From: Oscillospiraceae bacterium
Lineage (GTDB): Bacteria > Bacillota > Clostridia > Oscillospirales > UBA929
DNA: 64,000 bases
Direction of reading: 5' to 3'
Assembly (NCBI GenBank): GCA_009782475.1
Contig: WRIZ01000001.1
Span: 42,020-106,019 of the forward strand
This document shows positions 28,168 through 60,528 of the stretch, piece after piece (the stretch's first letter is position 1; the number at the start of each line of letters is the position of its first letter). The notes below the pieces were generated by a model, which was not told the origin of the DNA, made no database searches, and saw only the letters and a list, made by a program, of their open reading frames with translations. Both the position numbers and the translations under genes were made by a program.

Positions 28168-28181
28168 CCAGCGAACAGCCA

Positions 28182-28205: not shown

Positions 28206-28324
28206 GCAGGGTAAAACTTTATTTTTTTCGCTCGACAAAATTCGACAAATCGGTGCCGAATTGTATGATACACTACCCTCAGAGGGAAATCTTTCCTCAA
28301 ACATTTTGAAGGAGTGAGGTCAAA

Positions 28325-35314: not shown

Positions 35315-35354
35315 CGTACATACCCCCACCAATCATGATTCAGGATGTTTCACT

Positions 35355-36738: not shown

Positions 36739-36754
36739 GGTACCCCTCCACTTA

Positions 36755-36784
36755 TTGACATACCTATTACGGATACTATATAAT
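36755..36784 (+). promoter_or_regulatory. purL promoter
   Basis: TTGACA (36755-36760) followed by TATATAAT 16-18 nt downstream. Confidence 0.55.
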
Positions 36785-36813
36785 AAATCAATCTAAAGTA
36801 CAAGGGGGTACCT

Positions 36814-40491: not shown

Positions 40492-42403
40492 ATACAGTCA
40501 CATCGTACCGCACATCGCGGTCGGCGGCGGCGTCATCAACGGCGTCGCCAGTTGGGCTGTTTCGCAAAAATACAAAACGATATTGGCCGTCTCCGACCCG
40601 AACACCCGCCGGGTTGCGGGTGATCGTTTGCTGCCCGTGTTACGGGCCGCCGGGCTGACGGTGCGTGAGTGCCGGTTTGAACAAAACGAGCCGCTTCCGG
40701 ACGAGGCCTCCGTCGGGGCATTGCTGGCGGCGTTTCAGGACGATGTGGATTTGATCTTGGGGATCGGTTCGGGCGTCATCAACGACCTTTGTACATACGT
40801 CGGAGCCAAAGCCGGACGCCCGTCCGTCATCGTCGGCACAGCCCCTTCGATGGACGGCTATGCCTCGCTCGGTTCGGCCATGCTTCTGGGCGGGGTGAAG
40901 GTCACGCCGCCGACCCAATGCCCGGCCGCCATTTTTTGTGATACGGACATCCTCAAAGACGCCCCGCAGCTCATGAAGGCGGCGGGGCTGGGCGATATGC
41001 TGGGCAAATACACCGCGATGGCCGACTGGCGGCTCTCACACATTCTAACCGGAGAACCCATGCCGGAGGACATCGTTTCGCTGGTGGAAACGGCTCTCGA
41101 TAAGTGCGTGAAAGACCCTAAGGATATTCAATCCATCACCGAAGGGCTGATTTTAGGCGGTATCGCCATGAGCCTGTATGGCGACAGCCGTCCGGCGTCC
41201 GGCACCGAGCACCACCTTGCCCATTATTGGGAGATGCGGTATCTGAAAGAAGGGAAACCGCATGTTTCACACGGCATCAAGGTCGGTCTTGCGGCGGTCG
41301 CGGCGTTGGCCTTGTGGAAAGAGCTGCCGTCGGTCAAGCCGACGGAGGATGTTGCCCCGCATTGGGAAGAGATTTGCCGGTTTGCGGATTCACTGCCTTC
41401 GCCGGAAGTTTTGACCGAACTTTTACAGAGTGCCGGCGCGCCGGCGCGCCCTTCAGAAATCGGCCTCACCCAAGACATACTGGCGGACAGCGTCCTCTAC
41501 GCCCGCGACCGTAAGCCGCAGATGTATACATTGCTGCAGCTGCTGGGCGGGATGGACTTGCTTGCGGATTTTTCAAACAGGGCGGTGCGGCACTTTGAGC
41601 GAAACGCCCTCTCCGGCGTCAAATGCTTCGTTTTAGATATGGACGGCACCATCTATTTAGGGGGCAGGCTTTTCCCATTTACGAAAAACTTTTTGGAGCA
41701 ACTTAAAGCGTTTGGGTTTGACCATGTCTTCTTTACCAACAATTCCTCGCAAAACGCGGCGTTTTATCTGCGAAAACTGACGGAGTTGGGCATCCCCATT
41801 CCGCCGGAGAAACTGCTGATGTCCACCCACGTGCTGCTGTCGCATTTGGAGAAGGGAAAGCGTGTTTTCGTCGCCGGGACGAAACCGTTGATCGAAGATT
41901 TCCAGCAAGCCGGGTTTGCGGTGACGGACGAAAACCCTGATGTCTGCGTCTTGGGATTCGATCAGGACATGGATTACCGGCGGCTGACACAATTATGCGA
42001 TTTCGTCCGCGCCGGAGTTCCGGTTTACGGCGTGAATATGGACTTCAATTGCCCGGTTGAGGGCGGCGGATTTGTTCCCGACTGCGGAGCCCTTGCGGCG
42101 GCGGTCAGGGCTTCGACCGGGGTTGACATAGAGTTTTACGGAAAACCTTCGCGCAAAGCGTTGGCGTATATCATCGGGCGGACAGGGTATAAAGAGGAAG
42201 AGCTTTGCTTTGTCGGCGACAGGCTGTATACCGACGTCGCCATCGCTTCGGGGACGAAATCCCGCTCGGTTTTGGTTTTATCGGGAGAGACGAAACGGGA
42301 AGACCTCCGCGGCTCCCCGTTCGTGCCGGACTTGATTGTTGAGGATATAGGGGAATTAACCAGTTACTTGCCCTCCTCACGCCAAGCGTACGCTAGGCGT
42401 TAG
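40463..42403 (+). CDS. Fusion of sn-glycerol-1-phosphate dehydrogenase-like (iron-ADH fold, AraM/EgsA type) and HAD-IIA phosphatase (NagD/AraL type); start codon uncertain
   Basis: N-terminal half: GIGSGVINDL and ASGTEHHLAHYWE. C-terminal half: FVLDMDGTIY ... GDRLYTDV. There is no ATG/GTG/TTG between the purL stop and the conserved N-terminus. Candidate starts are TTG 40463 or ATG 40373, both inside purL. Confidence 0.7.
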   Translation: MRGAYGIFGKYSHIVPHIAVGGGVINGVASWAVSQKYKTILAVSDPNTRRVAGDRLLPVLRAAGLTVRECRFEQNEPLPDEASVGALLAAFQDDVDLILGIGSGVINDLCTYVGAKAGRPSVIVGTAPSMDGYASLGSAMLLGGVKVTPPTQCPAAIFCDTDILKDAPQLMKAAGLGDMLGKYTAMADWRLSHILTGEPMPEDIVSLVETALDKCVKDPKDIQSITEGLILGGIAMSLYGDSRPASGTEHHLAHYWEMRYLKEGKPHVSHGIKVGLAAVAALALWKELPSVKPTEDVAPHWEEICRFADSLPSPEVLTELLQSAGAPARPSEIGLTQDILADSVLYARDRKPQMYTLLQLLGGMDLLADFSNRAVRHFERNALSGVKCFVLDMDGTIYLGGRLFPFTKNFLEQLKAFGFDHVFFTNNSSQNAAFYLRKLTELGIPIPPEKLLMSTHVLLSHLEKGKRVFVAGTKPLIEDFQQAGFAVTDENPDVCVLGFDQDMDYRRLTQLCDFVRAGVPVYGVNMDFNCPVEGGGFVPDCGALAAAVRASTGVDIEFYGKPSRKALAYIIGRTGYKEEELCFVGDRLYTDVAIASGTKSRSVLVLSGETKREDLRGSPFVPDLIVEDIGELTSYLPSSRQAYARR

Positions 42404-42411
42404 AGGAGGGT

Positions 42412-42488
42412 GCCGCTCGAAAGCGGCGGGAGGAGAAAAACTCCCTCCGGCGCGTTGCGCCACCTCCCTCTGAGAGGGAGGCAAGGGC
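42412..42488. repeat. GC-rich hairpin repeat element (copy B), intergenic
   Basis: Hairpin GCCGCT-CGAA-AGCGGC (42412-42427), then CTCCCTCCG-N7-GCGCCAC and CCTCCCTC-TGA-GAGGGAGG (42463-42481). It matches the core of 7299-7346. Confidence 0.7.
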
Positions 42489-43363
42489 TACCCCCCGGCT
42501 ACCTTAAACCCTAACCCCAGCACCTCACGGGCGTTGAGGAAAATCATGAAGCTGGACGGATCGACCCGGTGCGCGGCGGCTTTCAATCTGCTGACCTCAT
42601 GAGGCCGGGCGGCGATCATCAAGGTGGTCACAGCCTGATTGGTGTACATGCCCCGCCCGTCCAGCCCGGTGCAGCCCCGCTGGACTTCGTGAAGGACAGC
42701 TTCGGCCATTTCCTCGGGTTTGCTTGTGACGATCAGCGCGGCCGAGGCGTTGTCCATGCCGGAGAGCAGCATATCGATGATCGACGAGGCGACGTATTGC
42801 ACGACAACGGCGTACAAAGCCGCTTCGGGGCTTCGGTAGACAAAAGCCGCGGCGGCGATGACAACGGCGTTGACGGTGAGGTTGACCCTCCCCAGGCTGA
42901 TATGCGGCTTTTTGCCTGTGACCATCTTGGCGATGATGTCGCTCCCGCCGGTCGTCGCGCCGCGCATGAAGACAAGCCCCAGCCCGAGACCCATCAACAC
43001 ACCGCCGTACAGCACCGACAGCAGCTTATCTTCGGTGATGACGACGTTGGACAAGACCGGGGTGAGGAAGTCGATCATCAGGCTGGAAGCAACGGTGGCG
43101 ACGGTGGTGCGGATCAAAAACTGCCGCCCGAGCTGCCGGAACGAGATCAAAAAGAGCGGCAGGTTGAGCAGGATGACCATAACGCCCATCGGCAGAAATC
43201 CGGTCAGGTATTCGATCATCTGCGCAACGCCGCCCACTCCGCCGATGATGACGTCGACCGGGCGGATAAACATCACAACAGCCGAGGCATACAACAGGTT
43301 GCCCAGCAGGATGAGGGTATAATCCAAAACGGCGCGCGCTTTATGTTGCTGATGTTGGTTCAT
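42488..43363 (-). CDS. YitT family membrane protein (DUF2179 C-terminal domain)
   Basis: Five TM segments with GGTTGG-like TTGGSD and a C-terminal soluble domain (LIVTSKPEEMAEAVLHEVQRGCT). Confidence 0.8.
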   Translation of the reverse strand: MNQHQQHKARAVLDYTLILLGNLLYASAVVMFIRPVDVIIGGVGGVAQMIEYLTGFLPMGVMVILLNLPLFLISFRQLGRQFLIRTTVATVASSLMIDFLTPVLSNVVITEDKLLSVLYGGVLMGLGLGLVFMRGATTGGSDIIAKMVTGKKPHISLGRVNLTVNAVVIAAAAFVYRSPEAALYAVVVQYVASSIIDMLLSGMDNASAALIVTSKPEEMAEAVLHEVQRGCTGLDGRGMYTNQAVTTLMIAARPHEVSRLKAAAHRVDPSSFMIFLNAREVLGLGFKVAGG

Positions 43364-43748
43364 CTATAGCACCCTCGAACAATTCATATATCCGCTCGAT
43401 ACGGCCGCTTAACCAAAGCCAGCCAAACAACGCTTCCAGCGCGGTCGCGCTTTGATACTCGGCGCGGCTGGCCGAGGCCGGGATGCTGCCCGGCTGCGCG
43501 TTGCGCCCCCGCCGGAAAACGGCGGCTTCCTCATCGGTCAAAAGGGGCAAGACTCTTTCCGCTGCCAGAGCTTGCGCCCGGGCATTGACGTGTTTGACCC
43601 GCATGGTATGCACATCCTCGGCTTGCGCGAATCCCTGCTTGCAGAGGCGGGTGCGCACCAACAGGTCGTAGACGCTGTCGCCGACCGACGCAACGGCTAA
43701 AATCCCCAGCGCGTTGATTTGATGTTGACTGAGCGGTTTTGGAAACAT
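43341..43748 (-). CDS. mrnC: Mini-ribonuclease 3
   Basis: LAVASVGDSVYDLLVR (RNase III signature variant), 135 aa. ATG preceded by GAGGAG. Confidence 0.85.
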   Translation of the reverse strand: MFPKPLSQHQINALGILAVASVGDSVYDLLVRTRLCKQGFAQAEDVHTMRVKHVNARAQALAAERVLPLLTDEEAAVFRRGRNAQPGSIPASASRAEYQSATALEALFGWLWLSGRIERIYELFEGAIDEPTSAT

Positions 43749-43782
43749 GTTTATTCTCCTCATTGAAAGGATGATTTATACC

Positions 43783-44736
43783 ATGAGCGTCACGATTTCG
43801 GTGGTTGTCCCGCTGTATAACGAAGAGGAAGTCATTGCCGAGTCATACCGCCGCCTCAAAGAAGTGATGGACGGAACGGGCGAGGAATACGAGTTGATCT
43901 TCGTCAACGACGGCAGCCGCGACCAAACGTGGCACTTGGCTTGCGCGCTGGCCGAAAGCGACCCGCGCCTCCGGCTGATCGGGTTTTCGCGCAATTTCGG
44001 CCACCAAACCGCCATCACGGCGGGGATGGACGCGGCTTGCGGCCAAGCCGTGGTGGTCATCGACGCCGACTTGCAAGACCCGCCCGAAGTCATCCCGGCT
44101 ATGATCGCCAAATGGCGGGAAGGGTTTCAGGTGGTATACGGCCTGCGCACCAAGCGCAAAGGGGAGAGCTTTTTCAAAAAGATCACGGCGAAACTCTTTT
44201 ACCGCCTCTTAAATTCCCTGACCGACGTCGACCTCCCGGTGGACACAGGCGATTTCCGCCTGATCGACCGCGCCGTCTGCGACGCGCTGAAAGCCCTGCC
44301 GGAGCGCAACCGCTACGTGCGCGGGTTGGTGAGCTGGGTGGGCTTTAAGCAGACGGCGGTGGAATACGTCCGCGACGAACGCTTCGCCGGGGTTACAAAG
44401 TATCCGCTGCGGAAAATGCTGCGGCTGGCCGGAGACGGCCTGACCTCATTTTCCTACAAACCGCTCAAATTGTCAATCTTCATCGGCTCGCTCGTCTCGG
44501 TCGCCAGCTTTATCTATGCCATTGTGATCGTCTGTCAGAGGCTGTTCACCGACGTCCTTGTCTCCGGCTGGGCAACGCTGGCTTGCCTGACCCTCTTCTT
44601 CAACGGGGTGATTTTGATCATGATGGGCATCATCGGGCAGTATATCGGGCGGATTTACGACGAAACGAAGGGACGCCCGCTCTATATCGTGGCCGAACGG
44701 GTGAATTTTGAGGGGGACAGGGATAAAAATGCTTGA
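43783..44736 (+). CDS. GT2 family glycosyltransferase (polyprenyl-phosphate sugar transferase, GtrB/ArnC-like)
   Basis: VVVPLYNEEE, FVNDGSRD and DADLQDPP motifs plus two C-terminal TM helices. Confidence 0.88.
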   Translation: MSVTISVVVPLYNEEEVIAESYRRLKEVMDGTGEEYELIFVNDGSRDQTWHLACALAESDPRLRLIGFSRNFGHQTAITAGMDAACGQAVVVIDADLQDPPEVIPAMIAKWREGFQVVYGLRTKRKGESFFKKITAKLFYRLLNSLTDVDLPVDTGDFRLIDRAVCDALKALPERNRYVRGLVSWVGFKQTAVEYVRDERFAGVTKYPLRKMLRLAGDGLTSFSYKPLKLSIFIGSLVSVASFIYAIVIVCQRLFTDVLVSGWATLACLTLFFNGVILIMMGIIGQYIGRIYDETKGRPLYIVAERVNFEGDRDKNA

Positions 44737-44810
44737 CATTATCACTCATTTATGTCAATATATTGTTATGTAAACTCGTTATTATGTTATATTATAAGGG
44801 GTGGCGAACT

Positions 44811-47204
44811 TTGAAACGCACAGATATAATCACTACTGTTGGAAGGGAATTTCTAATCAGCAATATAGAAAATGATGAGTTCAGCTTTCAAAAAGCCCTT
44901 AAGGAAATAGGTAAAAACACAAAAGATTATCTTGCATCAAACGCGCGCCGCCATTACAAAGACATTGATTTACGTTTTGCTGATGATAAAGCAACTGTTC
45001 TTATAGAAACAAAGCAAAAACTTCTTAAAAGCAATGCAAAATATGATATGGAACAACTGCAACAGTATGTCTTATATGAAAAGCGGCTAACAACAAATAA
45101 AATCGTTGCTATATTGGCGAGCACGCTTACGGATGATATTCGCGTATGGACAGATGATACCGGAATAATTGATGATGAACATGAAAGCAAAAACGAACGC
45201 GTTATACGTCCGTTTTCAGAATATATCAACCTGTTTTTCGGCACAAAAAATGACAAGTTGGCTATCATTCAAAGCACCTACGCATTGAATGAACTTCTGC
45301 ACAATTATGGAATAAATGAAAAAATACGAAGCCAATTTATTGGAACTTGTTTATTATCGCTTAAAAACGGATTAAAATATGAAGGGCTAACTGCGGCGCA
45401 AATTCGGGGGGGTATAGAAGGCATCCTAACAAGTCTGCTTGAAAAAGATTTAAGCAAAGCAACGAAGCTGACCATATTAAAAAACAAAGTAATCGACTCG
45501 CAAGATGTCAGGGATTTGAAAGATAAAGAATTTCAGCGAATACTGACAGATGTAAAGGATAATATTTTACCTTATATAAATGACGAGAGTAAAATGGGGC
45601 AGGACTTGCTGAATTTGTTTTTTACGACATTTAATAAATATGTTGGAAAATCTGATAAAAACCAAGCATTTACTCCAGATCATATAGTGCATTTTATGTG
45701 TAAAGTTGTCGGCATTAACCGTAATTCTATTGTGTTAGACCCCTGTTGCGGCAGCGGGGCTTTCTTGGTGCGCGCTATGACAGAGGCAATCGCAGATTGC
45801 GATACAGAAAGTGAGCGTATAAATGTAAAGAAAAAGCAGATTTACGGCATAGAATATGAGGAAGTTGCTTTTGGGCTGGCAACAACTAATATGCTTATAC
45901 ATAGCGATGGAAACACAAATATCTTACAGGGTAATTGCTTTACTGAAATAGGCTATCTAAATGCGGGGATAAATGTTGTTTTGATGAACCCCCCTTATAA
46001 TGCGCAAAGAAAACACTGTAATCCCAGTTATGTAAAGGGATGGAATGAAAACCAAAAAGAAGATCCTTCAAAAGGGTTGCATTTTGTTTATGAAATCGCA
46101 AAAAAAGTAAAGAAGGGGAAATTGGCTGTTTTATTGCCTATGCAGTGTGCCATGGATACATCATTAGCGATTCAAGAATATAAGAAAAAAATGTTGGATG
46201 AGCATACATTAGACGCTGTTTTTTCATTTCCTTCTGATATGTTTTATCCCGGCTCAACTGTTGTAGCCTGCTGTATGGTGTTTACCCTTGGAACACGGCA
46301 TCTAAACGCTCCTGTAAGACAAACCTTTTTCGGATATTTCAAAGATGATGGTTTAATTAAGAAAAAACACATAGGAAGAGTTGAAAGCAGTGTAGGTTCT
46401 TGGAGCATTATCGAGAAAGAATGGTTAACCTTATATTTTAGCAGAGAGACAAAAATGGGAGCATCTGTAACAAGAGAAGTTTCATATAACGACGAATGGC
46501 TGGCAGAGGCCTACATGAAAACAGACTATTCGACACTAACCGCAAAGGATTTTCAAGAAGCTCAAAGAAAATATTTAGGGTATCACATAAGTATTGGGAA
46601 TGGACTCGATGAAAGTGTCCTGCATCTTCTCCAAGACATCCTTAGAGATAAGCAAACATGTAAATTGACATCTCTAAATACACAAGCATGGAAAGAATTT
46701 CAATATACAACGATATTCGACATACAAAAAGGCTTCTACAACAAAAAACCAGAGCATAACATAGCTGGGAAAATTCCATTCATAGGGGCAACGGAAAAGA
46801 ACAATGGCGTTACAGAGTATTATTCAGTTGAAGATATTGAATGCGCTTCAAAAACAGGCGATGAAAACAACTCTCCTCTTTCTGAAAAGATATTTCCGCC
46901 AAACGCTGTCTGTGTGACCAATAACGGCTCCGTAGGGTTCGCGTTTTATCAAGATCGAGAATTTACTTGCAGTCATGATGTAAACCCGCTGTATTTATTG
47001 AATGGTGAATTCAATGTATATACCGGTTTGTTTGTAGCTGCCGTTATAATGAAAGATAGATATAGATGGGATTATGGAAGAAAATGGCGTCCGGCTAGAA
47101 TGATTAAATCAATTATATCACTTCCGCAAAACGCAAAAGGATTGCCGGACTGGGATTACATGGAGCAATTTATTAAATCACTGCCATATGGCGATAAGAT
47201 ATAG
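44811..47204 (+). CDS. Single-chain Type IIG-like restriction-modification enzyme (PD-ExK nuclease + gamma-class N6-adenine methyltransferase + one target-recognition domain)
   Basis: N-terminus: DIDLRF...ATVLIETKQK...QLQQY (D-X-ExK). MTase motif I is LDPCCGSGAFL and motif IV is NPPYN. The C-terminal ~200 aa resemble a type I S-subunit TRD. The gene is AT-rich. TTG start after AAGGGGTGG (alternative ATG at 44784). Confidence 0.75.
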   Translation: MKRTDIITTVGREFLISNIENDEFSFQKALKEIGKNTKDYLASNARRHYKDIDLRFADDKATVLIETKQKLLKSNAKYDMEQLQQYVLYEKRLTTNKIVAILASTLTDDIRVWTDDTGIIDDEHESKNERVIRPFSEYINLFFGTKNDKLAIIQSTYALNELLHNYGINEKIRSQFIGTCLLSLKNGLKYEGLTAAQIRGGIEGILTSLLEKDLSKATKLTILKNKVIDSQDVRDLKDKEFQRILTDVKDNILPYINDESKMGQDLLNLFFTTFNKYVGKSDKNQAFTPDHIVHFMCKVVGINRNSIVLDPCCGSGAFLVRAMTEAIADCDTESERINVKKKQIYGIEYEEVAFGLATTNMLIHSDGNTNILQGNCFTEIGYLNAGINVVLMNPPYNAQRKHCNPSYVKGWNENQKEDPSKGLHFVYEIAKKVKKGKLAVLLPMQCAMDTSLAIQEYKKKMLDEHTLDAVFSFPSDMFYPGSTVVACCMVFTLGTRHLNAPVRQTFFGYFKDDGLIKKKHIGRVESSVGSWSIIEKEWLTLYFSRETKMGASVTREVSYNDEWLAEAYMKTDYSTLTAKDFQEAQRKYLGYHISIGNGLDESVLHLLQDILRDKQTCKLTSLNTQAWKEFQYTTIFDIQKGFYNKKPEHNIAGKIPFIGATEKNNGVTEYYSVEDIECASKTGDENNSPLSEKIFPPNAVCVTNNGSVGFAFYQDREFTCSHDVNPLYLLNGEFNVYTGLFVAAVIMKDRYRWDYGRKWRPARMIKSIISLPQNAKGLPDWDYMEQFIKSLPYGDKI

Positions 47205-47245
47205 CCTCTTTGTGATTATATTTAAGAAGAATGAGGAAACCAGCC

Positions 47246-47938
47246 ATGATTGAAATCAAAAACACCTCGAAAACATACGGCACAGGAGAAAATGCCACCG
47301 CCGCGCTGAAAGATGTCTCGCTTACCGTCAGCGACGGGGTATTTATCGTATTGCTTGGCGCGTCAGGCTCCGGGAAGTCCACCCTCCTGCACATCGCGTC
47401 CGGTTTGGAGCGTCCCGACAGCGGGTCTGTTAACGTTGACGGCACCGACATCGCCGCCCTGCCCGACAAGGAGCTGACCGCCTTTCGGAAGGAGAAGGTC
47501 GGCTTCATCTTCCAGCAATATTTCCTGCTCCCCAACCTGAATGTAGACAAAAACGTGAAAATGGGAGCCGATTTGGCCGGGAACGGCGGTTACCGGGAGA
47601 TCATCGAAGCGGTCGGGCTGGGGGATAAACTGCACAAATTCCCCTCGCAGCTCAGCGGCGGGGAGCAGCAGCGGGTTTCCATCGCCCGGGCGTTGGCGAA
47701 AAACCCAAAGGTATTGTTCCTGGACGAACCGACCGGCGCGCTGGACGAGGAAACCGGGCGGCAGGTGCTGGATTACATAGGCAACTTGCAAAAAGCGCGC
47801 GGCTTTTCAATGGTGATGGTAACGCACAACGCCAACATCGCGGAGATCGCCGACACCGTTGTCAAAATGAACAGCGGGAAAATTGTTGAGATGGCCGGCA
47901 ATGAACAGCGAAAAACCGCTTACGAGATAGGGTGGTGA
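47246..47938 (+). CDS. ABC transporter ATP-binding protein (MacB/LolD/FtsE-like)
   Basis: [17 protein letters not shown] and [11 protein letters not shown]. Confidence 0.9.
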
Positions 47939-47942
47939 GGAG

Positions 47943-49097
47943 ATGATCATCCGTCCGAAAGACGCCGCCAAGCTGTTTGGCATTTCTATCATGTGCTTCT
48001 GCGCGGTTTTAATATCTACCATGTTTTTGAACTCCAACATCGACATGGCTCGAATCAAAGACCAAATAACAGACCCGGACGCCCTGCTTTTGCACGATAT
48101 GGTTGTATCGTCCGGGAAAATGACCAGCGCTGTGACCGGCGGCGCGCTTGCTTTGACCACGGTCGTCATTCTGCTTTTTTACGTCAAGCATTATATCGAC
48201 ACGCACAAATCGGAACTTGGGATATTGAAAGCGTTGGGGTATTCAAACTGGAAAATCGCAAGGAGTTTTTGGGTATTCGGATTGAGCGTGTTTACGGGAG
48301 CCGCTCTTGGGTTTGGCGGCGCGTTCGCCCTCATGCCCGCTTTCTATAGGCAAATGAGGAGCGATGAATTGCTGCCCGACACGCCGCTCCGCTTCAATCC
48401 CATATTGGTGATGTATTTAGTTGTTCTTCCCGCCCTTGCCTTTTCCGCACTGGCGGTGCTGTACAGCCATCGCAAGCTGAAGCGTCCGGCGTTGGAACTT
48501 ATCAGAGGGACAAGCAACGTCAGAGTAAAGAAAGCAAAACTCAACGGCAAACAGAAACCGGACGCCCCGTTTTTACGCGAATTAAAGCAAAGCACGGTGA
48601 GAAGCCGTTTTTCGCTGGTGTTCTTTATTTGGTTTGCTTCTTTTTGCTATGCGGCCAGCGTGGTCATGTCTTTCAGTATGCCCGAGGTTAGCAGCGATAT
48701 GATGGCGGTTTTGATGGCGGGAATCGGCATTGTCTTAGCCGTCACAACTTTGTTTATTGCGGTCACTACGGTGATTAAGGGCAACGCAAAAACCATCGCC
48801 ATGCTGCGGGTGTTTGGCTATTCCGACCGTGAGTGCGCCAGAGCAATATTAAGCGGCTACCGCCCGATAACCTATGTGGGTTTCGCGCTTGGAAGCATAT
48901 ATCAACACGGCTTAATGCTAATGGCATTGTCCATGTTTATCGGCAACGACGCTCTCGAACTGCCCGATTACAGCTTTCATTGGCAGGCGTGTATAATTTC
49001 GTTCATTTCCTTTGTGGTGATGTATGAGATATTTATGCGGGTCTATGCCGCGAAAATCAAGCGCATTCCGCTGAAAGAAGTCATGATGGAGGAGTAG
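47943..49097 (+). CDS. ABC transporter permease, FtsX-like
   Basis: 384 aa with two blocks of TM helices and FtsX-type GILKALGYS / LRVFGYS motifs. Confidence 0.8.
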   Translation: MIIRPKDAAKLFGISIMCFCAVLISTMFLNSNIDMARIKDQITDPDALLLHDMVVSSGKMTSAVTGGALALTTVVILLFYVKHYIDTHKSELGILKALGYSNWKIARSFWVFGLSVFTGAALGFGGAFALMPAFYRQMRSDELLPDTPLRFNPILVMYLVVLPALAFSALAVLYSHRKLKRPALELIRGTSNVRVKKAKLNGKQKPDAPFLRELKQSTVRSRFSLVFFIWFASFCYAASVVMSFSMPEVSSDMMAVLMAGIGIVLAVTTLFIAVTTVIKGNAKTIAMLRVFGYSDRECARAILSGYRPITYVGFALGSIYQHGLMLMALSMFIGNDALELPDYSFHWQACIISFISFVVMYEIFMRVYAAKIKRIPLKEVMMEE

Positions 49098-49108
49098 GCT
49101 CCGCTCTT

Positions 49109-49579
49109 TTAGCCTATCACATCGGCGAATCGCTTCTTTACCTCCAGCGTCGCGCCGGGATACCGCTGATAAAGAGTCTTCCTTCGATTCTTTATGCCTA
49201 TGTAGTCTGTTCTTGGTGCTTTGTTTACCACAGCGCGTAAATGCGGTGTATACCCCGGCATAGCGGGGCAAAGAAGTCTTACCGTATTCTCTAATTGTTC
49301 TACCGCGTCTTCCCAATGTCTCCCTTTAAGCTCAACAAAAAAGGCTTTCGTTTGCAGCGGGAACATGAAAAGATAATCACACCGTTTTTCCTCTGCCCCT
49401 GTAATCACGCCGCCGTCCACATGGTATATGATAGCCTGTGATTTCCCCTCATTCATTATGCCATATGAAACGCCGTTTTCTCTTCTCGTGGGGTTTGATT
49501 CGTTTGTGGTGGTTTTACATTCGCTTTTATCACAAAGAATGTTCTTTGTATGACACTCACAGAAGCGGTTACAAACCAT
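49109..49579 (-). CDS. Cys-rich protein with PD-(D/E)xK-like motif (putative nuclease effector), 156 aa
   Basis: Start at ATG 49579 preceded by GGAGG at 6 nt, with an 11-nt overlap with the ATPase stop. N-terminal CNRFCECHTKNILCDKSEC cluster, then CDYLFMFPLQTKAFFVELKG (D-X13-ELK). Confidence 0.55.
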   Translation of the reverse strand: MVCNRFCECHTKNILCDKSECKTTTNESNPTRRENGVSYGIMNEGKSQAIIYHVDGGVITGAEEKRCDYLFMFPLQTKAFFVELKGRHWEDAVEQLENTVRLLCPAMPGYTPHLRAVVNKAPRTDYIGIKNRRKTLYQRYPGATLEVKKRFADVIG

Positions 49580-50504
49580 GTTTGACCTCCAGCCGGACAA
49601 GGTCATCCATTTTTTCATCTATTATATCGGAGACGGTATCGATCTCCTCGGCCTTGATCAGCCCTGATTCTTCGTCAATGATACTCCGAGACGAAAATTG
49701 CCCGTTACGTTCCAGCAGATAAGCCGCTACATCGTCAGGGTTGAGCCGCGCCATCGGGTCGACGACGGCTTCCTCGCCTTGTATTTTATTCTCGACTTTT
49801 GCTGAATGGATCAGAAGATTGGTCGCCGTTAGGATATACGGGCTGTGGGTCGTGATGATGACACGGCTTCCCGTGGCATTGATGACACGGGCGACAAGCT
49901 CCATGACGAGTTTTTGCGAAACTGGATAGAGATGCGCTTCAGGTTCTTCAATGATGATGGTGCGAGGGTCAGGATGCGATAATACATAAAGTAAAGCAAA
50001 TAGTATATAAAATATTTCCTGTTGTCCTGAGGATGCTTCAAAAAGGGATATTATTATTTCTTTATTGACATGAATTTTATCTTTATCAGCCTCATTTGAA
50101 TATGCACATTCTCCCTTTACAATATGCCTTAAAAGTGAAACAGCTTCTGCAAAGTTGTTTTTATTTATGCGGGAATCAGACTTATATTGATTTTGCATAG
50201 CACGATAGTAGTCATCAAAAAAGGTTTCTCTTACATTGTCAACAAAAAGAATGAATTTATCCATAAATGGATCTATTTTTAATCTTGTAGCAGCGGCGTA
50301 ACTCTTGAAAATCAAGGGAATGATTGCCCGTCCGGCGGGTATATATAAGCAGTCCTCATTCTGTTCCGCGATAAACCGAGCGATGGTGCTCTTCCCCGTT
50401 GCCTGTTCGCCGATCAATATCGTCAGTTTTTTATCCAAGTCCATTTCAAAATGCCCGTCGATCGGGCCTAGGTTATCGATTGAGATTTTTTGCAAACTAA
50501 TCAC
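49569..50504 (-). CDS. Small ABC/AAA_21-type (SMC/RecF-like) ATPase, 311 aa
   Basis: Walker A GEQATGKST, signature-like SSGQQE, Walker B IIIEEPEAHLYP and H-loop TTHSPY. No TM and no second domain. Confidence 0.75.
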   Translation of the reverse strand: MISLQKISIDNLGPIDGHFEMDLDKKLTILIGEQATGKSTIARFIAEQNEDCLYIPAGRAIIPLIFKSYAAATRLKIDPFMDKFILFVDNVRETFFDDYYRAMQNQYKSDSRINKNNFAEAVSLLRHIVKGECAYSNEADKDKIHVNKEIIISLFEASSGQQEIFYILFALLYVLSHPDPRTIIIEEPEAHLYPVSQKLVMELVARVINATGSRVIITTHSPYILTATNLLIHSAKVENKIQGEEAVVDPMARLNPDDVAAYLLERNGQFSSRSIIDEESGLIKAEEIDTVSDIIDEKMDDLVRLEVKHGL

Positions 50505-50516
50505 CGCCTCGCGCCC

Positions 50517-50545
50517 ATTATAGCAAGCTGTTGCCGCAGGGTCAA
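50517..50545 (-). promoter_or_regulatory. Dedicated promoter of the ATPase/nuclease-like pair
   Basis: The minus strand reads TTGACC (50545-50540), 17 nt, TATAAT (50522-50517). Confidence 0.6.
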
Positions 50546-50565
50546 GGCAAATCTTACTCTGTCAT

Positions 50566-51057
50566 TTACCTTCCTATCTCCAACAACCAAGACGGAGCCG
50601 CAAAACACCCATATTGCTCTTCGTCCCGGAAATCAATAACGGCGGTCATACGGCCGCCTTTCATTGTGATGATGATTTGCGCCTCGTCCTGCCGGCCGTT
50701 TTGGCCGGTGTACGCATATGTCTCCACGATTTCACGGACAACGGCGGTTTTTTTCTTATCAAACCGAATTAAGTGTTCCTCAAACAGTTCGCGGGAGATG
50801 ACACTGCCGGCCGCAAAGCCGGTTTTTCTGCATATATAATACTCATTTTGAAGAGTTATACAGCTTTTCAGGATGGAATTGATCCGGCCGCTGATGCTCA
50901 CCCCGGTGTTTTCGCTCATTTGAATATGCGCAACCGCTTGGTCTCCGCAGGCATACTCCGTTGTGGTTATGGAGATGTTGTGCTTTGTTTCCGCGTGGTC
51001 ATAACACTGTTTGTCCACATGATAGACAACTGTGACCATATTTTCTCTTTCTCCCAT
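50566..51057 (-). CDS. Hypothetical protein, 163 aa (no recognisable motif)
   Basis: ORF divergent from the XRE regulator. An alternative start at 51039 (MVTVVYH) follows GGGAGAAAGAG. Confidence 0.45.
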   Translation of the reverse strand: MGERENMVTVVYHVDKQCYDHAETKHNISITTTEYACGDQAVAHIQMSENTGVSISGRINSILKSCITLQNEYYICRKTGFAAGSVISRELFEEHLIRFDKKKTAVVREIVETYAYTGQNGRQDEAQIIITMKGGRMTAVIDFRDEEQYGCFAAPSWLLEIGR

Positions 51058-51090
51058 CTTTCGTCATCTATGAAACCCAATATTTCAATT

Positions 51091-51123
51091 ATACCGAATT
51101 ATTAACTTTCGTCAATACCGAAT
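51091..51123. promoter_or_regulatory. Direct repeats ATACCGAAT x2 in the divergent intergenic region (candidate operator)
   Basis: ATACCGAAT at 51091-51099 and 51115-51123 (24-bp spacing), between the 163-aa gene and the XRE gene. A TATAAT lies at 51146-51151. Confidence 0.35.
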
Positions 51124-51174
51124 ATTTGAGCTTTCGTTTTCTTATTATAATGATAGAAAACGGAGGTGGTTGTT

Positions 51175-51525
51175 TTGACCTATCCGCAGCTAAAGGCGAT
51201 GGCCAACCGCATGAAGCGGCGACGGGAATCATTGGGATTCACGCAGGAACGCTTCAGCGAGGAGATCGAACTGTCGGTCAGCTCCTACACAAAGATCGAA
51301 AACGCCTTTCAAAAACCCAGGCTTGACACCCTGATCACAATAGCGCATCATCTTCACGAATCTTTGGATTATCTTGTTTTCGGCAAAGAGGGCGGCGAAA
51401 CCGCCGAAGACCGCGGCACCGATACCCTCAACGCGCTGCTGAACTACGCGGACGGCGATAAACTCCTCCACGCAAGCAGGTTTCTGGCGAAAATCGCTAA
51501 GGTCAAAGAAGCAGAAAAGTCTTGA
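51175..51525 (+). CDS. XRE family helix-turn-helix transcriptional regulator
   Basis: RRRESLGFTQERFSEEIELSVSSYTKIENA HTH_3 core. TTG start 8 nt after GGAGG. Confidence 0.8.
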   Translation: MTYPQLKAMANRMKRRRESLGFTQERFSEEIELSVSSYTKIENAFQKPRLDTLITIAHHLHESLDYLVFGKEGGETAEDRGTDTLNALLNYADGDKLLHASRFLAKIAKVKEAEKS

Positions 51526-51561
51526 AACATTTGGTTAAGTATGGTACAATACTATCTATCG

Positions 51562-52254
51562 TTAGGGATTGGGCATTTCCACCGCCAATATCTCCAAGGC
51601 TTTCTTCTCTATGCGGGAGATATACGACCGTGAAATCCCGAAACGTTCGGCAACCTCCCTTTGGGTCAGCGGGCGTTCATCGCCCAAACCATAACGCAGC
51701 CGGATGATTTCGCGCTGGCGTTCGTCCAGGGAGGTATCCACCAGCAGCCGCACCCGGCGGCACTCCTCTTCGTGTTCGAGGCGTTCCTGCACGTCGTCGT
51801 CGGCTTGCAGCACATCCATCACCGACAGCGGCGAACCGCCGTCGCCCTCCGCTTCGATCGGATCGGAGAGAGAGACTTCCCCCTGACGTTTGCGTAAATT
51901 GCGGAAGTGCATGAAAATCTCGTTTTGGATGCAGATGCAGGCATAGGTGGGCAGTTTGGCTTTCTTTTCCGGGCTGAAACTGTCAATAGCTTTGACCAGC
52001 CCGATGGTTCCAATGGAAATCAAATCATCTTGGTCGGCCGCGCCCACGTAGTATTTTTTAATGACATGCGGCACAAGCCGCAAATTGTGCATGATGAGCT
52101 TTTCCCGCGCGGTGCGGTCGCCTGTAGACATCGCGTCAAGCACCTGCTCCTCTTCTTTTTTGGTCAGCGGGCGCGGAAAAGAACCGCCCCGGCCGGTCAA
52201 GCGCAGGCAGAGCATATACCCTTGGAGAAGCAGCGTTACAACGGCGCCGAACAT
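51562..52254 (-). CDS. sigK: Sporulation sigma factor, SigK-like (SigE/SigK group), apparently intact
   Basis: Hydrophobic pro-sequence followed by SFPRPLT, then HNLRLVPHVIKKY, DLISIGTIGLVKAI, YACICIQNEIFMH and ISRSYISRIEKKAL. These resemble B. subtilis pro-sigma-K more than sigma-E. Confidence 0.7.
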   Translation of the reverse strand: MFGAVVTLLLQGYMLCLRLTGRGGSFPRPLTKKEEEQVLDAMSTGDRTAREKLIMHNLRLVPHVIKKYYVGAADQDDLISIGTIGLVKAIDSFSPEKKAKLPTYACICIQNEIFMHFRNLRKRQGEVSLSDPIEAEGDGGSPLSVMDVLQADDDVQERLEHEEECRRVRLLVDTSLDERQREIIRLRYGLGDERPLTQREVAERFGISRSYISRIEKKALEILAVEMPNP

Positions 52255-52299
52255 TCTGTCCCTCCTCAGAATCGTAATAGTCTACTATATGACGATGGG

Positions 52300-52317
52300 T
52301 TTTGTCCTGTGACAAAA
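52300..52317. promoter_or_regulatory. Palindrome TTTTGTC-N4-GACAAAA upstream of the TetR gene
   Basis: Perfect 7-bp arms at 52300-52306 and 52311-52317, 14 nt before the tetR-family start. Confidence 0.4.
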
Positions 52318-52330
52318 GAAGGGAGCGATT

Positions 52331-52885
52331 ATGAAACAAAAAATCCGAACCGCCGCCCTGTCGGTCTTCGATGAAAAAGGTTTTCATCAGGCGTCGATCC
52401 GGGACATCGCGGCGCGCGCCGGGTGTTCGCTGCCGACACTGTATTACCATTACGGCAGCAAGGAACACCTCTACGAAGAGATCGTCTGCGAAACATACAG
52501 GCAGATCAGCGAGCAGATCGCCGACCAAATCCCCGAGGGCATCCCCTTGCGGGACGTGTGGTTTTTTTCGGTCATGCAGCGCAGGCTCTTAACCGACGAC
52601 GACCGCCGCGTCTTCCGGCTGGCGCATAAAGCCATGTTGGGGCTTGACAACGCGGGGGCGGCCAGCGAAAAACTGATTTCGTACGAACGTGCTCGTCAGG
52701 CGGCCGACCGCAAACGGCTGATGGAAGAGATCGCCGACCCGGCTTTCGCCCGTCTCTTCCTCCGCGTGGCCGAGCAAATGCTGCTCTCGGCATTGCTGGA
52801 AGACGACGGGCTGGAACAGGAAGACATACGGCGGGAACTGGATATCCTCTTCGACGCCGCCGAACGGGGCGGATCGAAAGGGTGA
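52331..52885 (+). CDS. TetR/AcrR family transcriptional regulator
   Basis: N-terminal HTH: FDEKGFHQASIRDIAARAGCSLPTLYYHYGSKEHLY. Confidence 0.88.
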   Translation: MKQKIRTAALSVFDEKGFHQASIRDIAARAGCSLPTLYYHYGSKEHLYEEIVCETYRQISEQIADQIPEGIPLRDVWFFSVMQRRLLTDDDRRVFRLAHKAMLGLDNAGAASEKLISYERARQAADRKRLMEEIADPAFARLFLRVAEQMLLSALLEDDGLEQEDIRRELDILFDAAERGGSKG

Positions 52886-55053
52886 GCAAAAACAGGCAAG
52901 GCGTTTTGATCTGCGGCGCGTACGGGCACGGTAACTCAGGCGACGACGCCATTTTAGAAGCCATCATCCGGGAAATGCGTGAAATCGACCCCGACATGCC
53001 CATTTGGGCGTTGTCCCGCAGGCCGAAAGAGACGAGGGAACGCTTCGGCATCGGCGCGGTTCATCATTTTAATTTTTTCGGCTTTATGCGCATCATGCGA
53101 AAGACACGGATGTATCTCAGCGGCGGCGGGAGCTTGATCCAAGACGCCACCAGCCGGCGCAGTTTGTGGTATTACCTCAAATCGATCAAAATGGCCAAGA
53201 AACGCGGCAACCTCACGGTGATGTACGGGTGCGGCATCGGCCCCGTCGGCCACAAAGGCGGGCGGAAACAAACGGCGCGCATCATCAACCGATATGTAGA
53301 CGCCATCACCCTGCGCGAGGATTCGAGCCTGGAAGAGCTGAAACAGCTCGGCGTTGACCGCCCCGAGATCGTTTTGGCTTCCGACCCGGTGCTGGCATTG
53401 CCGTCCGCGCCGGAGGAAGAGGTCACCGCCGCGCTGACCCAATACGGATTGAACCCGGACGGGCGTTACCTCTGCTTTGCCCTCCGCAACTGGCAGGGAT
53501 TCCATGAAAAGGCTCCTATTTTTGCCGCGGCTGCCAATCGGGCTTATGAGGTTTACGGCCTGACCCCGGTGTTTGTGGCCATCAACCACCGCAGCGACGG
53601 CGACGCCGCCAACGCGGTCACCGGGCTTTTACAGACACCCTATCATGTGATCAGCGAACCGCTGACCAGCGGGTTGGCCATCGGCATCATGTCGCGCATG
53701 ACGGCGGTTGTGGCGATGCGCCTGCATGGGCTGGTGTTCGCGGCCAGCCGCGGCGTCCCGCTGATCGGCGTGGATTATGACCCCAAGGTCACGGCCTTTC
53801 TGCAATACGCCGGGCAGGAGATGTTTGTCCCCTTTCGGTCGATGGACGAAAACACCCTAAACGGATACATCGACCGCGCCATGGACGCCGGGGTGAGCCA
53901 ACGGTTCGCGGAAAACGCGCGGCGGCTGGCCGGACTCGAACGCCGCAATGTGGAAACCGCCCGAAAACTATACGCCCCGGAGGAAGACGGGCAGCTCAAA
54001 CGCATCGCTGTTTTTCAAATCGACTTGGACGTCGGCGGGATACAGCGTTCGCTGATCAACTTCCTCAGCGGCATTGACTATGAGCAATGCAAAGTTGACC
54101 TCTATCTCTACGAAGACAGCAAGTTTTTTCAGTTTCAGGAGCATCCCCATCTGCGTGTCCGATACCTGAAGCCCTATCCTTATCTCAGCCGGGTCGTTTA
54201 TTTCAATCTCTTGCGGAAGCTGGTCAAACCCCCGGGCGGCGGGCGGGTTTACGACACTGTCATTGATTTCAACAGCTACCAAAACGAATGCGCCGTCGGT
54301 GCGCTGGGCGTCACGGCCAAAAAGCGCGTCATGTGGCTCCACAACGACATTGAGATCAAACGGCAAAACGAAGTCAAATATCGAATCCTTTGGCACTTTT
54401 TCAAGAAAAAATTTGCCCGTTTTGATGGATTCTGCGCCGTTTCCCCCGGGATCATCGAAGGGTTCCGCCGGGTGTCCGGCGTTCGGGATAAACCTGTGAC
54501 CGCGATTGCAAACTTTATCGACACAGCCGAGATTTTCAAAAAAGCGGAAGAAGAGACCCCCTTCACCGTTGACCCGGCGCACTACAATCTCTGTACAATG
54601 GGTCGCATCTGCCACCAAAAGGGCTTTGACATCCTGATGGACATTCTAGCCCGCGTCGTCCCGCACAGACCCGACCTGCGGTTTTACCTGATCGGCGACG
54701 GCCCCGGCAAAGGCAAACTCCTCCGTCAAATCGGTAAACTGGGGCTGGGCGGGGTGGTGACCCTGCTGGGCAACCAGCCCAACCCCTTCCCCTATCTGCG
54801 CCAAATGGACGGTTTCGCGCTGACCAGCCGTTACGAGGGGCAGGGCATGGTGATATGGGAAGCCAAGTCTTTGGGGCTTGACCTGTTCGTCTCTAAAAAC
54901 CTCGAACCGTACAATCCCGGCATCCGCGGGATTGACGACATTGCCGGAGCGTTGATTTCGGCGAAAAAGCGCGAAAAAACGACCGATGACCTGTCGGAGT
55001 ATAATGAAACCGTCCGCAAAGCACTATTCAATGTATTGGAGCTGAAAGGTTGA
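52882..55053 (+). CDS. Fusion of polysaccharide pyruvyl transferase (CsaB-like) and GT4/GT1-type glycosyltransferase
   Basis: N-terminus: GAYGHGNSGDDAILEAI and RLHGLVFA. The C-terminal half has the GT-B motif (GRICHQKGFD ... SRYEGQGMVIWEA). Confidence 0.75.
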   Translation: MSKNRQGVLICGAYGHGNSGDDAILEAIIREMREIDPDMPIWALSRRPKETRERFGIGAVHHFNFFGFMRIMRKTRMYLSGGGSLIQDATSRRSLWYYLKSIKMAKKRGNLTVMYGCGIGPVGHKGGRKQTARIINRYVDAITLREDSSLEELKQLGVDRPEIVLASDPVLALPSAPEEEVTAALTQYGLNPDGRYLCFALRNWQGFHEKAPIFAAAANRAYEVYGLTPVFVAINHRSDGDAANAVTGLLQTPYHVISEPLTSGLAIGIMSRMTAVVAMRLHGLVFAASRGVPLIGVDYDPKVTAFLQYAGQEMFVPFRSMDENTLNGYIDRAMDAGVSQRFAENARRLAGLERRNVETARKLYAPEEDGQLKRIAVFQIDLDVGGIQRSLINFLSGIDYEQCKVDLYLYEDSKFFQFQEHPHLRVRYLKPYPYLSRVVYFNLLRKLVKPPGGGRVYDTVIDFNSYQNECAVGALGVTAKKRVMWLHNDIEIKRQNEVKYRILWHFFKKKFARFDGFCAVSPGIIEGFRRVSGVRDKPVTAIANFIDTAEIFKKAEEETPFTVDPAHYNLCTMGRICHQKGFDILMDILARVVPHRPDLRFYLIGDGPGKGKLLRQIGKLGLGGVVTLLGNQPNPFPYLRQMDGFALTSRYEGQGMVIWEAKSLGLDLFVSKNLEPYNPGIRGIDDIAGALISAKKREKTTDDLSEYNETVRKALFNVLELKG

Positions 55054-55871
55054 AACGCATTTTGGTTGTATCGGCAGAGCCGTGGAGCCGCGAGAAAGAC
55101 CGTGTGAATTGTCTCGCCTCCCGGATGCCTGAGGTTGACTTCCGGTTTCTCAGCCCGGTTGACATGAAAGGGTTGTTCAAAGAAACCCGGTTCAAACGGC
55201 AGTTTGCAAAAGCGGTGGAAGCCTCCGTCCTCATCCTCGTCTCCCCGGCCGCCCACGCCGGACGGCTGCAATCGTCCGGCAAGCCTGTCCTCCCTCTGCC
55301 CGCCGGTGTGGATTTTGAGGCGTTTTCCAGCGCGGCCGAACGGAACCTCCCCTTCCCGGACGATTTATTCAACGTCAAAAACCCCATCATCGGGCACACA
55401 GGATCGGTGGATGAATCCGTCAACCTCCAAACCGTGGCCGAAGCCGCCGAAGCCCACCCGGAATGGGCTTTCGTCTTTGCCGGCCCGATTCTCACCGACA
55501 CCGCCGTATGGAAACCCTTCCCGAACATTCATCTGCTCGGGGAAAAGCCTCCCGGCCACCTGCCGGCCTATGTCAGCCGTTTTGACGTTTGCGTCAACCT
55601 TGCGAAAAGTGCCGCCGCGCCGCCGGAGAAGCTCTACGAATACCTCGCCTCCGGCAAGCCCATTGTCTCGACCCCGCACCCGGCGCAGGTGCTGGACTAC
55701 ACCGAGGCGGTATACCTCGCGGGGACGCCCGGGGAGTTCATCGCCTGCTGCAAGAAAGCCATCAGTGAGCGTGACGCGTGGAAGACGCGCCGCCGGATCG
55801 AATACGGGAGAGCCGCGAGCTGGGACGCCCGCGCCGCCGATTTGGAGAGAACAATCAAAGAATTATCATAA
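55050..55871 (+). CDS. Glycosyltransferase-like protein (GT-B C-terminal domain, TuaH-like)
   Basis: IGHTGSVDESVN ... EKLYEYLASGKPIVST pattern. 4-nt overlap with the upstream gene. Confidence 0.55.
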   Translation: MKRILVVSAEPWSREKDRVNCLASRMPEVDFRFLSPVDMKGLFKETRFKRQFAKAVEASVLILVSPAAHAGRLQSSGKPVLPLPAGVDFEAFSSAAERNLPFPDDLFNVKNPIIGHTGSVDESVNLQTVAEAAEAHPEWAFVFAGPILTDTAVWKPFPNIHLLGEKPPGHLPAYVSRFDVCVNLAKSAAAPPEKLYEYLASGKPIVSTPHPAQVLDYTEAVYLAGTPGEFIACCKKAISERDAWKTRRRIEYGRAASWDARAADLERTIKELS

Positions 55872-55902
55872 ATAAAGAAACGAAAAGAAGGGATGGTACA
55901 TC

Positions 55903-59423: not shown

Positions 59424-59445
59424 TTGATAAAAATATTATTATTTG

Positions 59446-59474
59446 CTTGACATTTTCAGTGAAATCATATATCA
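59446..59474 (+). promoter_or_regulatory. Promoter of the response-regulator/kinase operon
   Basis: TTGACA (59446-59451), 17 nt, TATCAT (59469-59474). Confidence 0.55.
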
Positions 59475-59508
59475 TATATTTTGCAGTATTGTCGTAAGGG
59501 GTGCGGAA

Positions 59509-60522: not shown

Positions 60523-60528
60523 GAAAAT

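Follow-up and report, generated by a model that had tools for sequence, protein, structure and literature searches.

The window analysed here is a 64,000-nt stretch of contig WRIZ01000001.1 from an uncultured Oscillospiraceae lineage. Between a glycosyltransferase family 2 (GT2) gene and a sigK gene it carries a group of genes that the original prediction had read as one lower-GC accessory island of the defence type, occupying positions 44737–51561. Gene families were assigned with Pfam, PADLOC and NCBIfam profiles (Table 1), and these confirmed the predicted content, namely a Type IIG restriction-modification (RM) gene, an ABC transporter pair, a pair encoding an ATPase and a small nuclease-like protein, a short gene that had been called an orphan, and an XRE-family regulator gene. 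The GT2 open reading frame (ORF) ends at 44736 and the minus-strand sigK ORF at 51562, where their stop codons had been placed. Comparison with related loci upheld the description of this DNA as accessory and atypical, but the accessory segment ends at approximately 50578, and the last two genes are conserved neighbours. The remaining five genes fill the insert, and as no intergenic gap exceeds 97 nt there is no space for a hidden gene. Paralogues of the insert genes were not found elsewhere in the 64-kb window.

Table 1. Coordinates of the insert, its genes and the genes that flank it in the window
Feature	Position	Strand	Details and supporting match
GT2 glycosyltransferase, left flank	43747..44736	+	Glycos_transf_2 1.9e-34
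Lineage-specific insert	44714..50578	.	5,865 bp, relative to the empty sites of L118/L119 and L120
BcgI-like Type IIG RM enzyme	44811..47204	+	797 aa, TTG start; Pfam and PADLOC
ABC transporter ATP-binding protein	47246..47938	+	230 aa (L111 gene call); ABC_tran 1.2e-35
FtsX-family ABC permease	47943..49097	+	384 aa; Pfam FtsX 1.3e-19, two stretches
Small protein of PDC-M29-like pair	49109..49579	-	156 aa; PADLOC PDC-M29B 4.9e-8
AAA_15/AAA_21 (OLD/ABC-type) ATPase	49569..50495	-	308 aa; Pfam AAA_15 2.8e-25, AAA_21 1.2e-19
Promoter-like site TTGACC-17-TATAAT with TG	50517..50545	-	11/12 consensus; upstream of ATPase, inside insert
157-aa protein (predicted as a 163-aa gene), right flank	50566..51039	-	Uncharacterised family
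XRE-family regulator, right flank	51175..51525	+	HTH_3 4.6e-12
sigK, intact	51562..52254	-	230 aa with pro-sequence; NF004471

G+C content (GC) was calculated in 500-nt and 2-kb windows over all 64 kb and for individual segments, and GC at third codon positions (GC3) was calculated for each ORF. In the 500-nt windows, GC falls to 0.35–0.39 at 44750–47249 and to 0.37–0.40 at 49750–50499, whereas it is approximately 0.57–0.64 on the left flank and 0.53–0.63 on the right. The AT-rich stretches that had been recognized by eye between GC-rich flanks were therefore borne out, both here and by GC3. The lowest 2-kb value of the whole 64 kb (0.371) is at 45001–47000, the second lowest is 0.483, and the drop far exceeds the variation seen across the window. 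The insert as a whole has a GC of 0.435, against approximately 0.59 for the left flank and 0.58 for the right (0.593 and 0.576, respectively, over the flanking 10 kb). However, the shift is a mosaic one. GC is 0.367 for the RM segment, 0.522 for the ABC segment, 0.442 for the ATPase/nuclease segment and 0.472 for the 157-aa gene and XRE, while GC3 is 0.33 for the RM gene, 0.44 for the AAA_15 ATPase, 0.49 for the small protein, 0.63 for the FtsX permease and 0.73 for the ABC ATPase. For the neighbouring 157-aa gene and XRE it is 0.57 and 0.64, and for the other ORFs in the window it averages 0.65, with most at 0.66–0.80 and a typical value of approximately 0.70. The compositional shift is thus real and the ABC ATPase is host-like. 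As composition differs so sharply among the three modules of the insert (RM, ABC, ATPase/nuclease), it argues for their separate origins.

Related loci (numbered with the prefix L) were retrieved via sigK and GT2, and L003–L109 make up a set of 100+ that share the flanks. The decisive comparisons were with two further lineages. L118 and L119 are independent assemblies that are 99.98% identical to each other and carry, in order, genes for FGAM synthase, Fe-ADH/HAD, YitT, mini-RNase III and GT2, then a 157-aa homologue, XRE and SSB. Amino acid identities to the window are 89% for GT2, 44% for the 157-aa homologue and 67% for XRE. The 2,341-nt contig L120 comes from the same metagenome as L001 and L111 (see below) and contains, contiguously, TetR (90% amino acid identity), sigK (88%), XRE (69%), a 157-aa homologue (47%) and the GT2 3′ end (92% over 26 residues). 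L118 and L120 represent distinct lineages (69–73% nucleotide identity), and in both L118/L119 and L120 the GT2 and 157-aa genes converge with an overlap of approximately 56 nt. The XRE and 157-aa genes are at 5506–6513 in L118 and 1297–2308 in L120. L120 includes both flanks and shares collinear nucleotide homology with the window from XRE into sigK (75% over 1,390 nt), while L118/L119 covers the GT2 side.

When the window was aligned with L118, nucleotide homology stopped at 44713 and restarted at 50579, with 5,865 bp in the window replacing a single nucleotide of the L118 site. The L118/L119 and L120 loci are empty sites that lack the five insert genes; the search for such variants in relatives, proposed with the original prediction, found them at the orthologous position. 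As these sites place XRE and the 157-aa gene beside GT2 and sigK, the insert was delimited as 44714–50578. Both convergent genes are altered at their 3′ ends. The last seven codons of GT2 and its stop (44714–44736) lie inside the insert, so that the protein ends VNFE-GDRDKNA here and VNFEK or VNFEDP elsewhere. Although GT2 is 83–89% identical over its full length in L003, L030–L033 and L118, the tail that follows VNF(D/E) is different in every lineage. The tail of the 157-aa protein has been removed by the insert, leaving WLLEIGR before the stop in place of WLIFQNSPVPPQYTAAAP.

The insert was also found in contigs of the same species, at approximately 99.5–99.97% nucleotide identity. L111 corresponds to window positions 34811–47554, L001 to 47414–62296 and L002 to 50386–56934. 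Across three same-species samplings (L001/L111, L002 and the window itself) the insert is present wherever covered. The left junction is spanned by L111 and the right by both L001 and L002, and the ABC ATPase ORF is unbroken across the sole join that is not independently spanned. The insert is not an assembly artefact. When metagenomes were scanned with GT2, a conspecific contig was not found, and the best matches were 85–88% identical. In ENA assembly ERZ27257320, L111 and L001 both end within the ABC ATPase gene, at 47414–47554 of the window, and their overlap is exactly 141 nt, the k-mer size of the assembler. This overlap points to a graph branch, which possibly reflects variation among strains or a second, near-identical ABC segment within the community.

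XRE and the 157-aa gene belong to the conserved surroundings of sigK and GT2 rather than to the cargo, with XRE at the same position in L118/L119 and L120 and the 157-aa gene divergently paired with it in all three contexts (window, L118 and L120). The 157-aa gene had been described as an orphan, and a word-indexed search that returned only the protein itself seemed to agree. An exhaustive HMMER search overturned this, recovering 59 family representatives at E≤1e-3, 35 of these at E≤1e-10, and it was the gene contexts of family members that led to L118/L119 and L120. Family members are 150–170 aa and have no Pfam match. The AlphaFold2 (AF2) model of the 157-aa protein (pLDDT 93) bears a weak likeness to CYTH/triphosphate-tunnel proteins (PDB 3typ, E 3e-4, TM-score 0.46). 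XRE has weak PADLOC matches to capH and HTH_VI. The sigK product scores 256 bits with NF004471 (cut-off 252) and 247 bits with TIGR02846, which is below the cut-off; SigE models score lower. Two promoter-like sites were noted in this flank, one of 11/12 consensus positions at 51115–51088, upstream of the 157-aa gene, and another (TTGAAA-17-TACAAT with TG, plus strand) at 51522–51550, just past the XRE stop and directed antisense into the sigK 3′ end. Like the promoter-like site in the insert, these are consensus matches, and the total count does not exceed that in shuffled controls.

The first gene of the insert encodes a protein identical to P0001, an Oscillospiraceae protein named ‘N-6 DNA methylase’ by NCBI. 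Its Pfam matches are N6_Mtase (1.4e-30) and Methylase_S (2.5e-10, at residues 652–815 of an 823-aa ORF), and REase_MTase_IIG was the best PADLOC model (3.5e-56), with Specificity_II at 2.1e-24. The layout is an N-terminal PD-(D/E)xK-like domain, a γ-class N6-adenine methyltransferase and one C-terminal target-recognition domain. E20, D53, E66-x-K68, DPCCGSG and NPPY are invariant in 11 homologues, the last two being the S-adenosylmethionine-binding motif I and motif IV of the methyltransferase. The N-terminal 135 residues fall outside the coverage of the PADLOC IIG profile. An AF2 model of residues 1–239 (pLDDT 85) has an α-β-β-β-α-β core in which the second strand begins with the D and the third carries ExK. 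The top Foldseek matches were PD-(D/E)xK nucleases (Hjc, HincII and cap-snatching endonucleases), all at E≥0.1 and none significant. Among solved structures, only Type I M subunits match the RM enzyme, and no match to Type IIB/IIG structures was significant.

The RM family includes forms of approximately 800 aa that are fused to one recognition domain and forms of approximately 603 aa without it, the latter found in Paenibacillus and Leptospira, among others. By length and domain make-up, the shorter form fits an A subunit that would depend on another subunit for specificity. BcgI divides the work in this way, with both catalytic centres in the A subunit (Glu53 is part of its PD…ExK motif) and DNA reading in the B subunit (PMC3592470). 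As the family forms and motifs follow this logic, the enzyme was predicted to be Type IIG. It would methylate host DNA at N6-adenine via the fused recognition domain, and is predicted from motifs and model to cut unmodified incoming DNA via the N-terminal domain. Like the BcgI/BsaXI-type IIB–IIG enzymes (PMC3592470, PMC11997821), it is a single polypeptide with a putative PD…ExK nuclease motif near residues 50–70 followed by a γ-class N6-adenine methyltransferase. It differs from BcgI in having one C-terminal fused recognition domain, where BcgI B has two, and in the lack of a separate S gene. The nearest homologues, P0002 and P0003 (80% and 77% identity), are in unrelated contexts, one beside a mannosyltransferase-like gene and the other beside DUF6323/DUF6179 genes. 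All copies of the RM gene are AT-rich, and their nucleotide homology is confined to the coding sequence (44806–47191). The RM gene behaves as a solo cassette, moving alone.

The second module consists of an ATP-binding protein and a permease, for which a MacB-type label had been proposed. The ATPase ORF runs from 47231 (235 aa), and its best NCBIfam families are DevA, LolD, MacB and FtsE, each below the cut-off. The permease has two FtsX-like halves, approximately eight hydrophobic segments and no large extracytoplasmic domain. The pairing of a MacB/LolD/FtsE-like ATPase with an FtsX-domain permease is that of a MacB-type (type VII) transporter, and at superfamily level the label holds. However, a hydropathy scan of the permease placed only approximately 33 residues between hydrophobic segments one and two, too few for the large domain that MacB carries between its first and second transmembrane segments. 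The pair is an FtsX-family (type VII superfamily) exporter, probably with a role in efflux or peptide resistance rather than anti-phage defence.

The third module is a pair of adjacent, minus-strand genes that overlap by 11 nt and match both PDC-M29A and PDC-M29B models. The best PADLOC match of the ATPase is AriA (4.1e-29), with PDC-M29A at 9e-23. In six homologues of the small protein, C-D-Y-L … E-L-K is invariant and accompanies an N-terminal Cys/His cluster, which makes it a putative PD-(D/E)xK nuclease by motif; a PDB sequence search with the small-protein profile gave no match. The pair is a conserved two-gene module. In five homologous contigs (L112–L116), the small gene follows a 376–377-aa AAA_15/AAA_21 ATPase gene with the same 11-nt overlap, and in L117 the gene upstream is cut by the contig end. 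In L112 (1–8474, a Logan contig), the pair is directly downstream of BREX genes (PglZ-like and BrxL), a defence-island context. Compared with its 376–377-aa homologues (58% identity; alignment A1), the ATPase in the window lacks approximately 70 residues just after Walker A, but it keeps Walker A and the C-terminal motifs. A profile (A1) built from this ATPase and the L112 and L116 homologues matches the OLD-family and retron Ec78 (PtuA) ATPases in PDB.

The ATPase and its partner are a candidate ATP-dependent anti-phage nuclease system of the Gabija/PARIS/Septu kind, perhaps with its own promoter. An AAA_15/AAA_21 ATPase that is translationally coupled to a small D…ExK partner is what it has in common with PDC-M29, Gabija, PARIS AriA and Septu PtuA. 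It departs from PDC-M29 in that the ATPase scores higher on AriA than on PDC-M29A and is approximately 70 residues shorter than its nearest homologues. In the literature searched, the name PDC-M29 did not appear and experimental validation was not found. The view that the gene mix is typical of a defence island holds for the RM gene and the ATPase/nuclease pair, which are of the defence type, but not for the ABC pair, which is probably not anti-phage and has a host-like composition.

The original prediction saw no integrase, transposase or direct repeat, and domain scans and a repeat search of the junctions were likewise negative. No recombinase or transposase domain was found in any gene of 44.7–51.6 kb with Pfam or NCBIfam, tRNA and Rfam scans of the region returned nothing, and att-like or direct repeats at the junctions were limited to short chance-level matches. 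Neither a target-site duplication nor terminal inverted repeats are present at the mapped junctions. A 25-nt inverted match (80% complementary; 44705–44729 and 50428–50452) was judged to be chance, as its right arm is inside the conserved ATPase coding region, 126 nt from the right junction. When the insert was used to query plasmid and phage sequences by blastn, only generic ABC or methylase motifs were returned; a tblastn search of plasmids with the FtsX permease found nothing, and scans of viral contigs with the permease and the ATPase profile gave no relevant match.

An analogy with the skin elements had also been raised. Accessory DNA near sigK in a spore-former is a feature shared with skin of Bacillus subtilis and Clostridioides difficile, but in those species the element splits the sigK ORF and is excised by a serine recombinase that it encodes (PMC5025042). 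In the window the sigK gene is intact, as had been predicted. The insert is not immediately downstream of it, being approximately 1 kb away beyond two conserved genes, at the GT2/157-aa overlap, and neither a recombinase nor att sites are present. The skin-like reading was rejected on these grounds.

The same junction is variable in relatives. Apart from generic matches to ABC ATPases at 21–38% identity, the 100+ related loci yielded no homologue of RM, of XRE or of any gene between them, and DNA homology is lost at the 3′ end of GT2, shortly after the sigK stop, or at both. L118/L119 is the exception, with homology that continues through the 157-aa gene and XRE. In L003 (sigK 87%, GT2 83%), both flank blocks are kept, but XRE and the 157-aa gene are missing from between sigK and GT2 and the 1.7 kb found there is unrelated DNA that includes a histidine-phosphatase fragment and a sigma-70 region-2 fragment. 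In L004, the junction is occupied by AT-rich, low-GC genes of unknown function, and L030–L033 show four different right-hand neighbours of GT2. L009 (sigK 71% identity) contains a type II CRISPR-Cas locus (11037–16208) that starts approximately 370 nt downstream of sigK and encodes Cas9 (1,096 aa), Cas1, Cas2 and a repeat array that was read as a repetitive ORF. A HEPN-MNT pair lies approximately 3 kb downstream in L006. The defence occupants seen near the junction so far are the RM gene and PDC-M29-like pair in the window, the Cas9-CRISPR locus in L009 and the HEPN-MNT pair in L006. Within the clade, the site has repeatedly been a breakpoint, with differing cargo.

Taken together, we consider 44714–50578 likely to be a 5.9-kb composite accessory insert, integrase-less and located at the convergent 3′–3′ junction of GT2 and the 157-aa gene near sigK. 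The direction of the event is inferred to be insertion, not deletion, as an identical overlapping junction is present in two lineages, the composition is atypical and the five genes are absent from the sampled relatives. Its modules would have been acquired stepwise from donors of different GC content. Foreign DNA may have joined once, by illegitimate recombination, and then spread by the cell's own double homologous recombination through the flanking conserved genes. As there is no mobility gene and the site is different in every relative, this model of homologous exchange is the best supported.

Such a locus has precedents. Many hotspots of horizontal gene transfer have no recognizable mobile element and show recombination in the core genes on either side (Oliveira et al. 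2017, PMC5635113), and defence hotspots without identifiable mobilization are found in Escherichia coli (PMC10121019) and Pseudomonas aeruginosa (PMC10250203). With the integrase-less hotspots (PMC5635113), including E. coli #37 (PMC10121019) and P. aeruginosa cDHS1/2 (PMC10250203), the insert shares variable, defence-enriched cargo between conserved genes, the lack of an identifiable mobile element, a mosaic composition and different occupants of the junction in relatives. However, hundreds of conspecific genomes went into defining the published hotspots, whereas a handful of cross-species metagenome contigs was available here, and the insert is small (5.9 kb) with one of its three modules not defence. 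Among bacterial hotspots of gene exchange the insert is an ordinary case, and the kind is already known.

Several observations weigh against this account, or at least against parts of it. All of the comparisons are cross-species (sigK 71–88% amino acid identity), and a conspecific strain without the insert was not found in the three same-species samplings. The choice between insertion and deletion rests on parsimony and composition. Most neighbours differ on one side only, and part of the apparent hotspot is a general decay of synteny. XRE and the 157-aa gene are missing from L003, and the pair has a low GC (0.472 in the window and 0.47 in L118); the two may be accessory DNA of an earlier layer instead of core genes. 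A related donor, or a long stay in the host, could account for the host-like GC of the ABC pair. The RM N-terminus was called a nuclease from motifs and topology, with fold matches at E≥0.1, and the ATPase module, with its approximately 70 missing residues, may be decaying, or the deletion may be tolerated.

A broader version of this account would make the GT2/XRE-157-aa/sigK junction a dedicated, recombinase-independent landing pad for immune genes across the Oscillospiraceae clade, which is probably from termite gut. XRE and its CYTH-like partner would then be a regulatory module or a defence module themselves. The names of the relatives' isolates resemble those of sets of termite-gut metagenome-assembled genomes. 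A clade-wide landing pad is possible and draws on a few cross-species contigs, but we regard the dedicated form of it as unlikely.

Deletion is one of two alternatives to an integrase-less insertion that we consider improbable. The five genes would be ancestral, precisely deleted in L118/L119 and L120, and their low GC would reflect gene-specific constraints. A conspecific empty site was not found, the insert appears fixed in all same-species samplings and the GC3 of the ABC pair is host-like, as this explanation would have it. However, independent deletions would be unlikely to give two distinct lineages the same overlap of GT2 and the 157-aa gene, and beyond generic ABC-ATPase similarity the five genes are absent from L003–L109. 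An RM gene with a GC3 of 0.33 in a genome of approximately 0.70 is hard to explain by constraint, and its homologues, just as AT-rich, are solo genes with unrelated surroundings.

The other alternative, which we hold to be just as improbable, is that the block is what remains of a mobile element, or was carried by one, with the mobility genes located elsewhere or lost; it could be a decayed integrative element, a trans-mobilized satellite, a cassette moved by a distant recombinase or a skin-like element linked to sigK. Mobile elements typically carry cargo of this type, movement of the RM gene between genomes is clear, the break of the ENA assembly in the ABC ATPase gene with its k-mer-sized overlap hints at population heterogeneity, and E. 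coli hotspots include islands of unclear mobilization (PMC10121019). Against this, a recombinase, att sites, a target-site duplication, terminal inverted repeats and a tRNA gene are all absent, and known plasmids, phages and viral contigs show nothing similar beyond generic motifs. The nucleotide homology of the RM gene ends at the coding sequence, which means that there are no shared element ends, and sigK is intact and approximately 1 kb away, unlike the interrupted sigK of the recombinase-encoding skin elements (PMC5025042).

That the whole of 44737–51561, XRE and the 157-aa gene included, landed downstream of sigK as one defence island is very improbable: although the entire stretch is below flank GC (0.435 for the insert and 0.472 for the 157-aa gene and XRE), defence operons often have an XRE regulator beside them, the one here has weak capH and HTH_VI matches, and L003 lacks both genes between sigK and GT2, the two genes occur in the same order and orientation by GT2 and/or sigK in two lineages without the other five, collinear nucleotide homology runs through XRE into sigK in L120, and the composition is a mosaic rather than uniform.

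For the insert as we interpret it, the practical value is modest. The boundary of the island has been corrected, and the supposed orphan and XRE have been placed in a conserved sigK neighbourhood. The locus is a clean case, resolved to the nucleotide, of an insertion that lacks an integrase and lies where two convergent genes overlap, in an Oscillospiraceae lineage that is uncultured. Small, uncharacterized targets for experiments are offered by the 157-aa CYTH-like family and by the PDC-M29-like pair. If the junction were a recurrent landing pad for defence genes, GT2, XRE and sigK could be anchors for mining immune systems from gut metagenomes, as core-gene anchors have been used in P. aeruginosa (PMC10250203).

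Other features of the window were noted. Further low-GC genes (GC 0.35–0.51) are at 4120–4971, 13549–13998, 18654–19037, 26537–29910 and 63287–63847. The one at 18654–19037 encodes a PIN-domain protein, possibly a toxin, and four of these scattered genes are adjacent, two of them with weak Peptidase_M7-like matches. Purine-biosynthesis genes are found on both sides of the region, at 36814–40491 and 55903–59423. The left-hand set includes the FGAM synthase gene, and the right-hand set encodes AIRC, glutamine amidotransferase and phosphoribosyltransferase, AIRS and formyltransferase domains (purE/F/M/N-like). Between the split purine genes are glycosyltransferase genes, sigK and the insert. A 723-aa fused polysaccharide pyruvyl-transferase/glycosyltransferase (52882–55053) is represented by two ORFs (398 and 280 aa) in L002 (1882–4054), a 99.5%-identical JGI contig, and the split is either a frameshift variant or a sequencing error.

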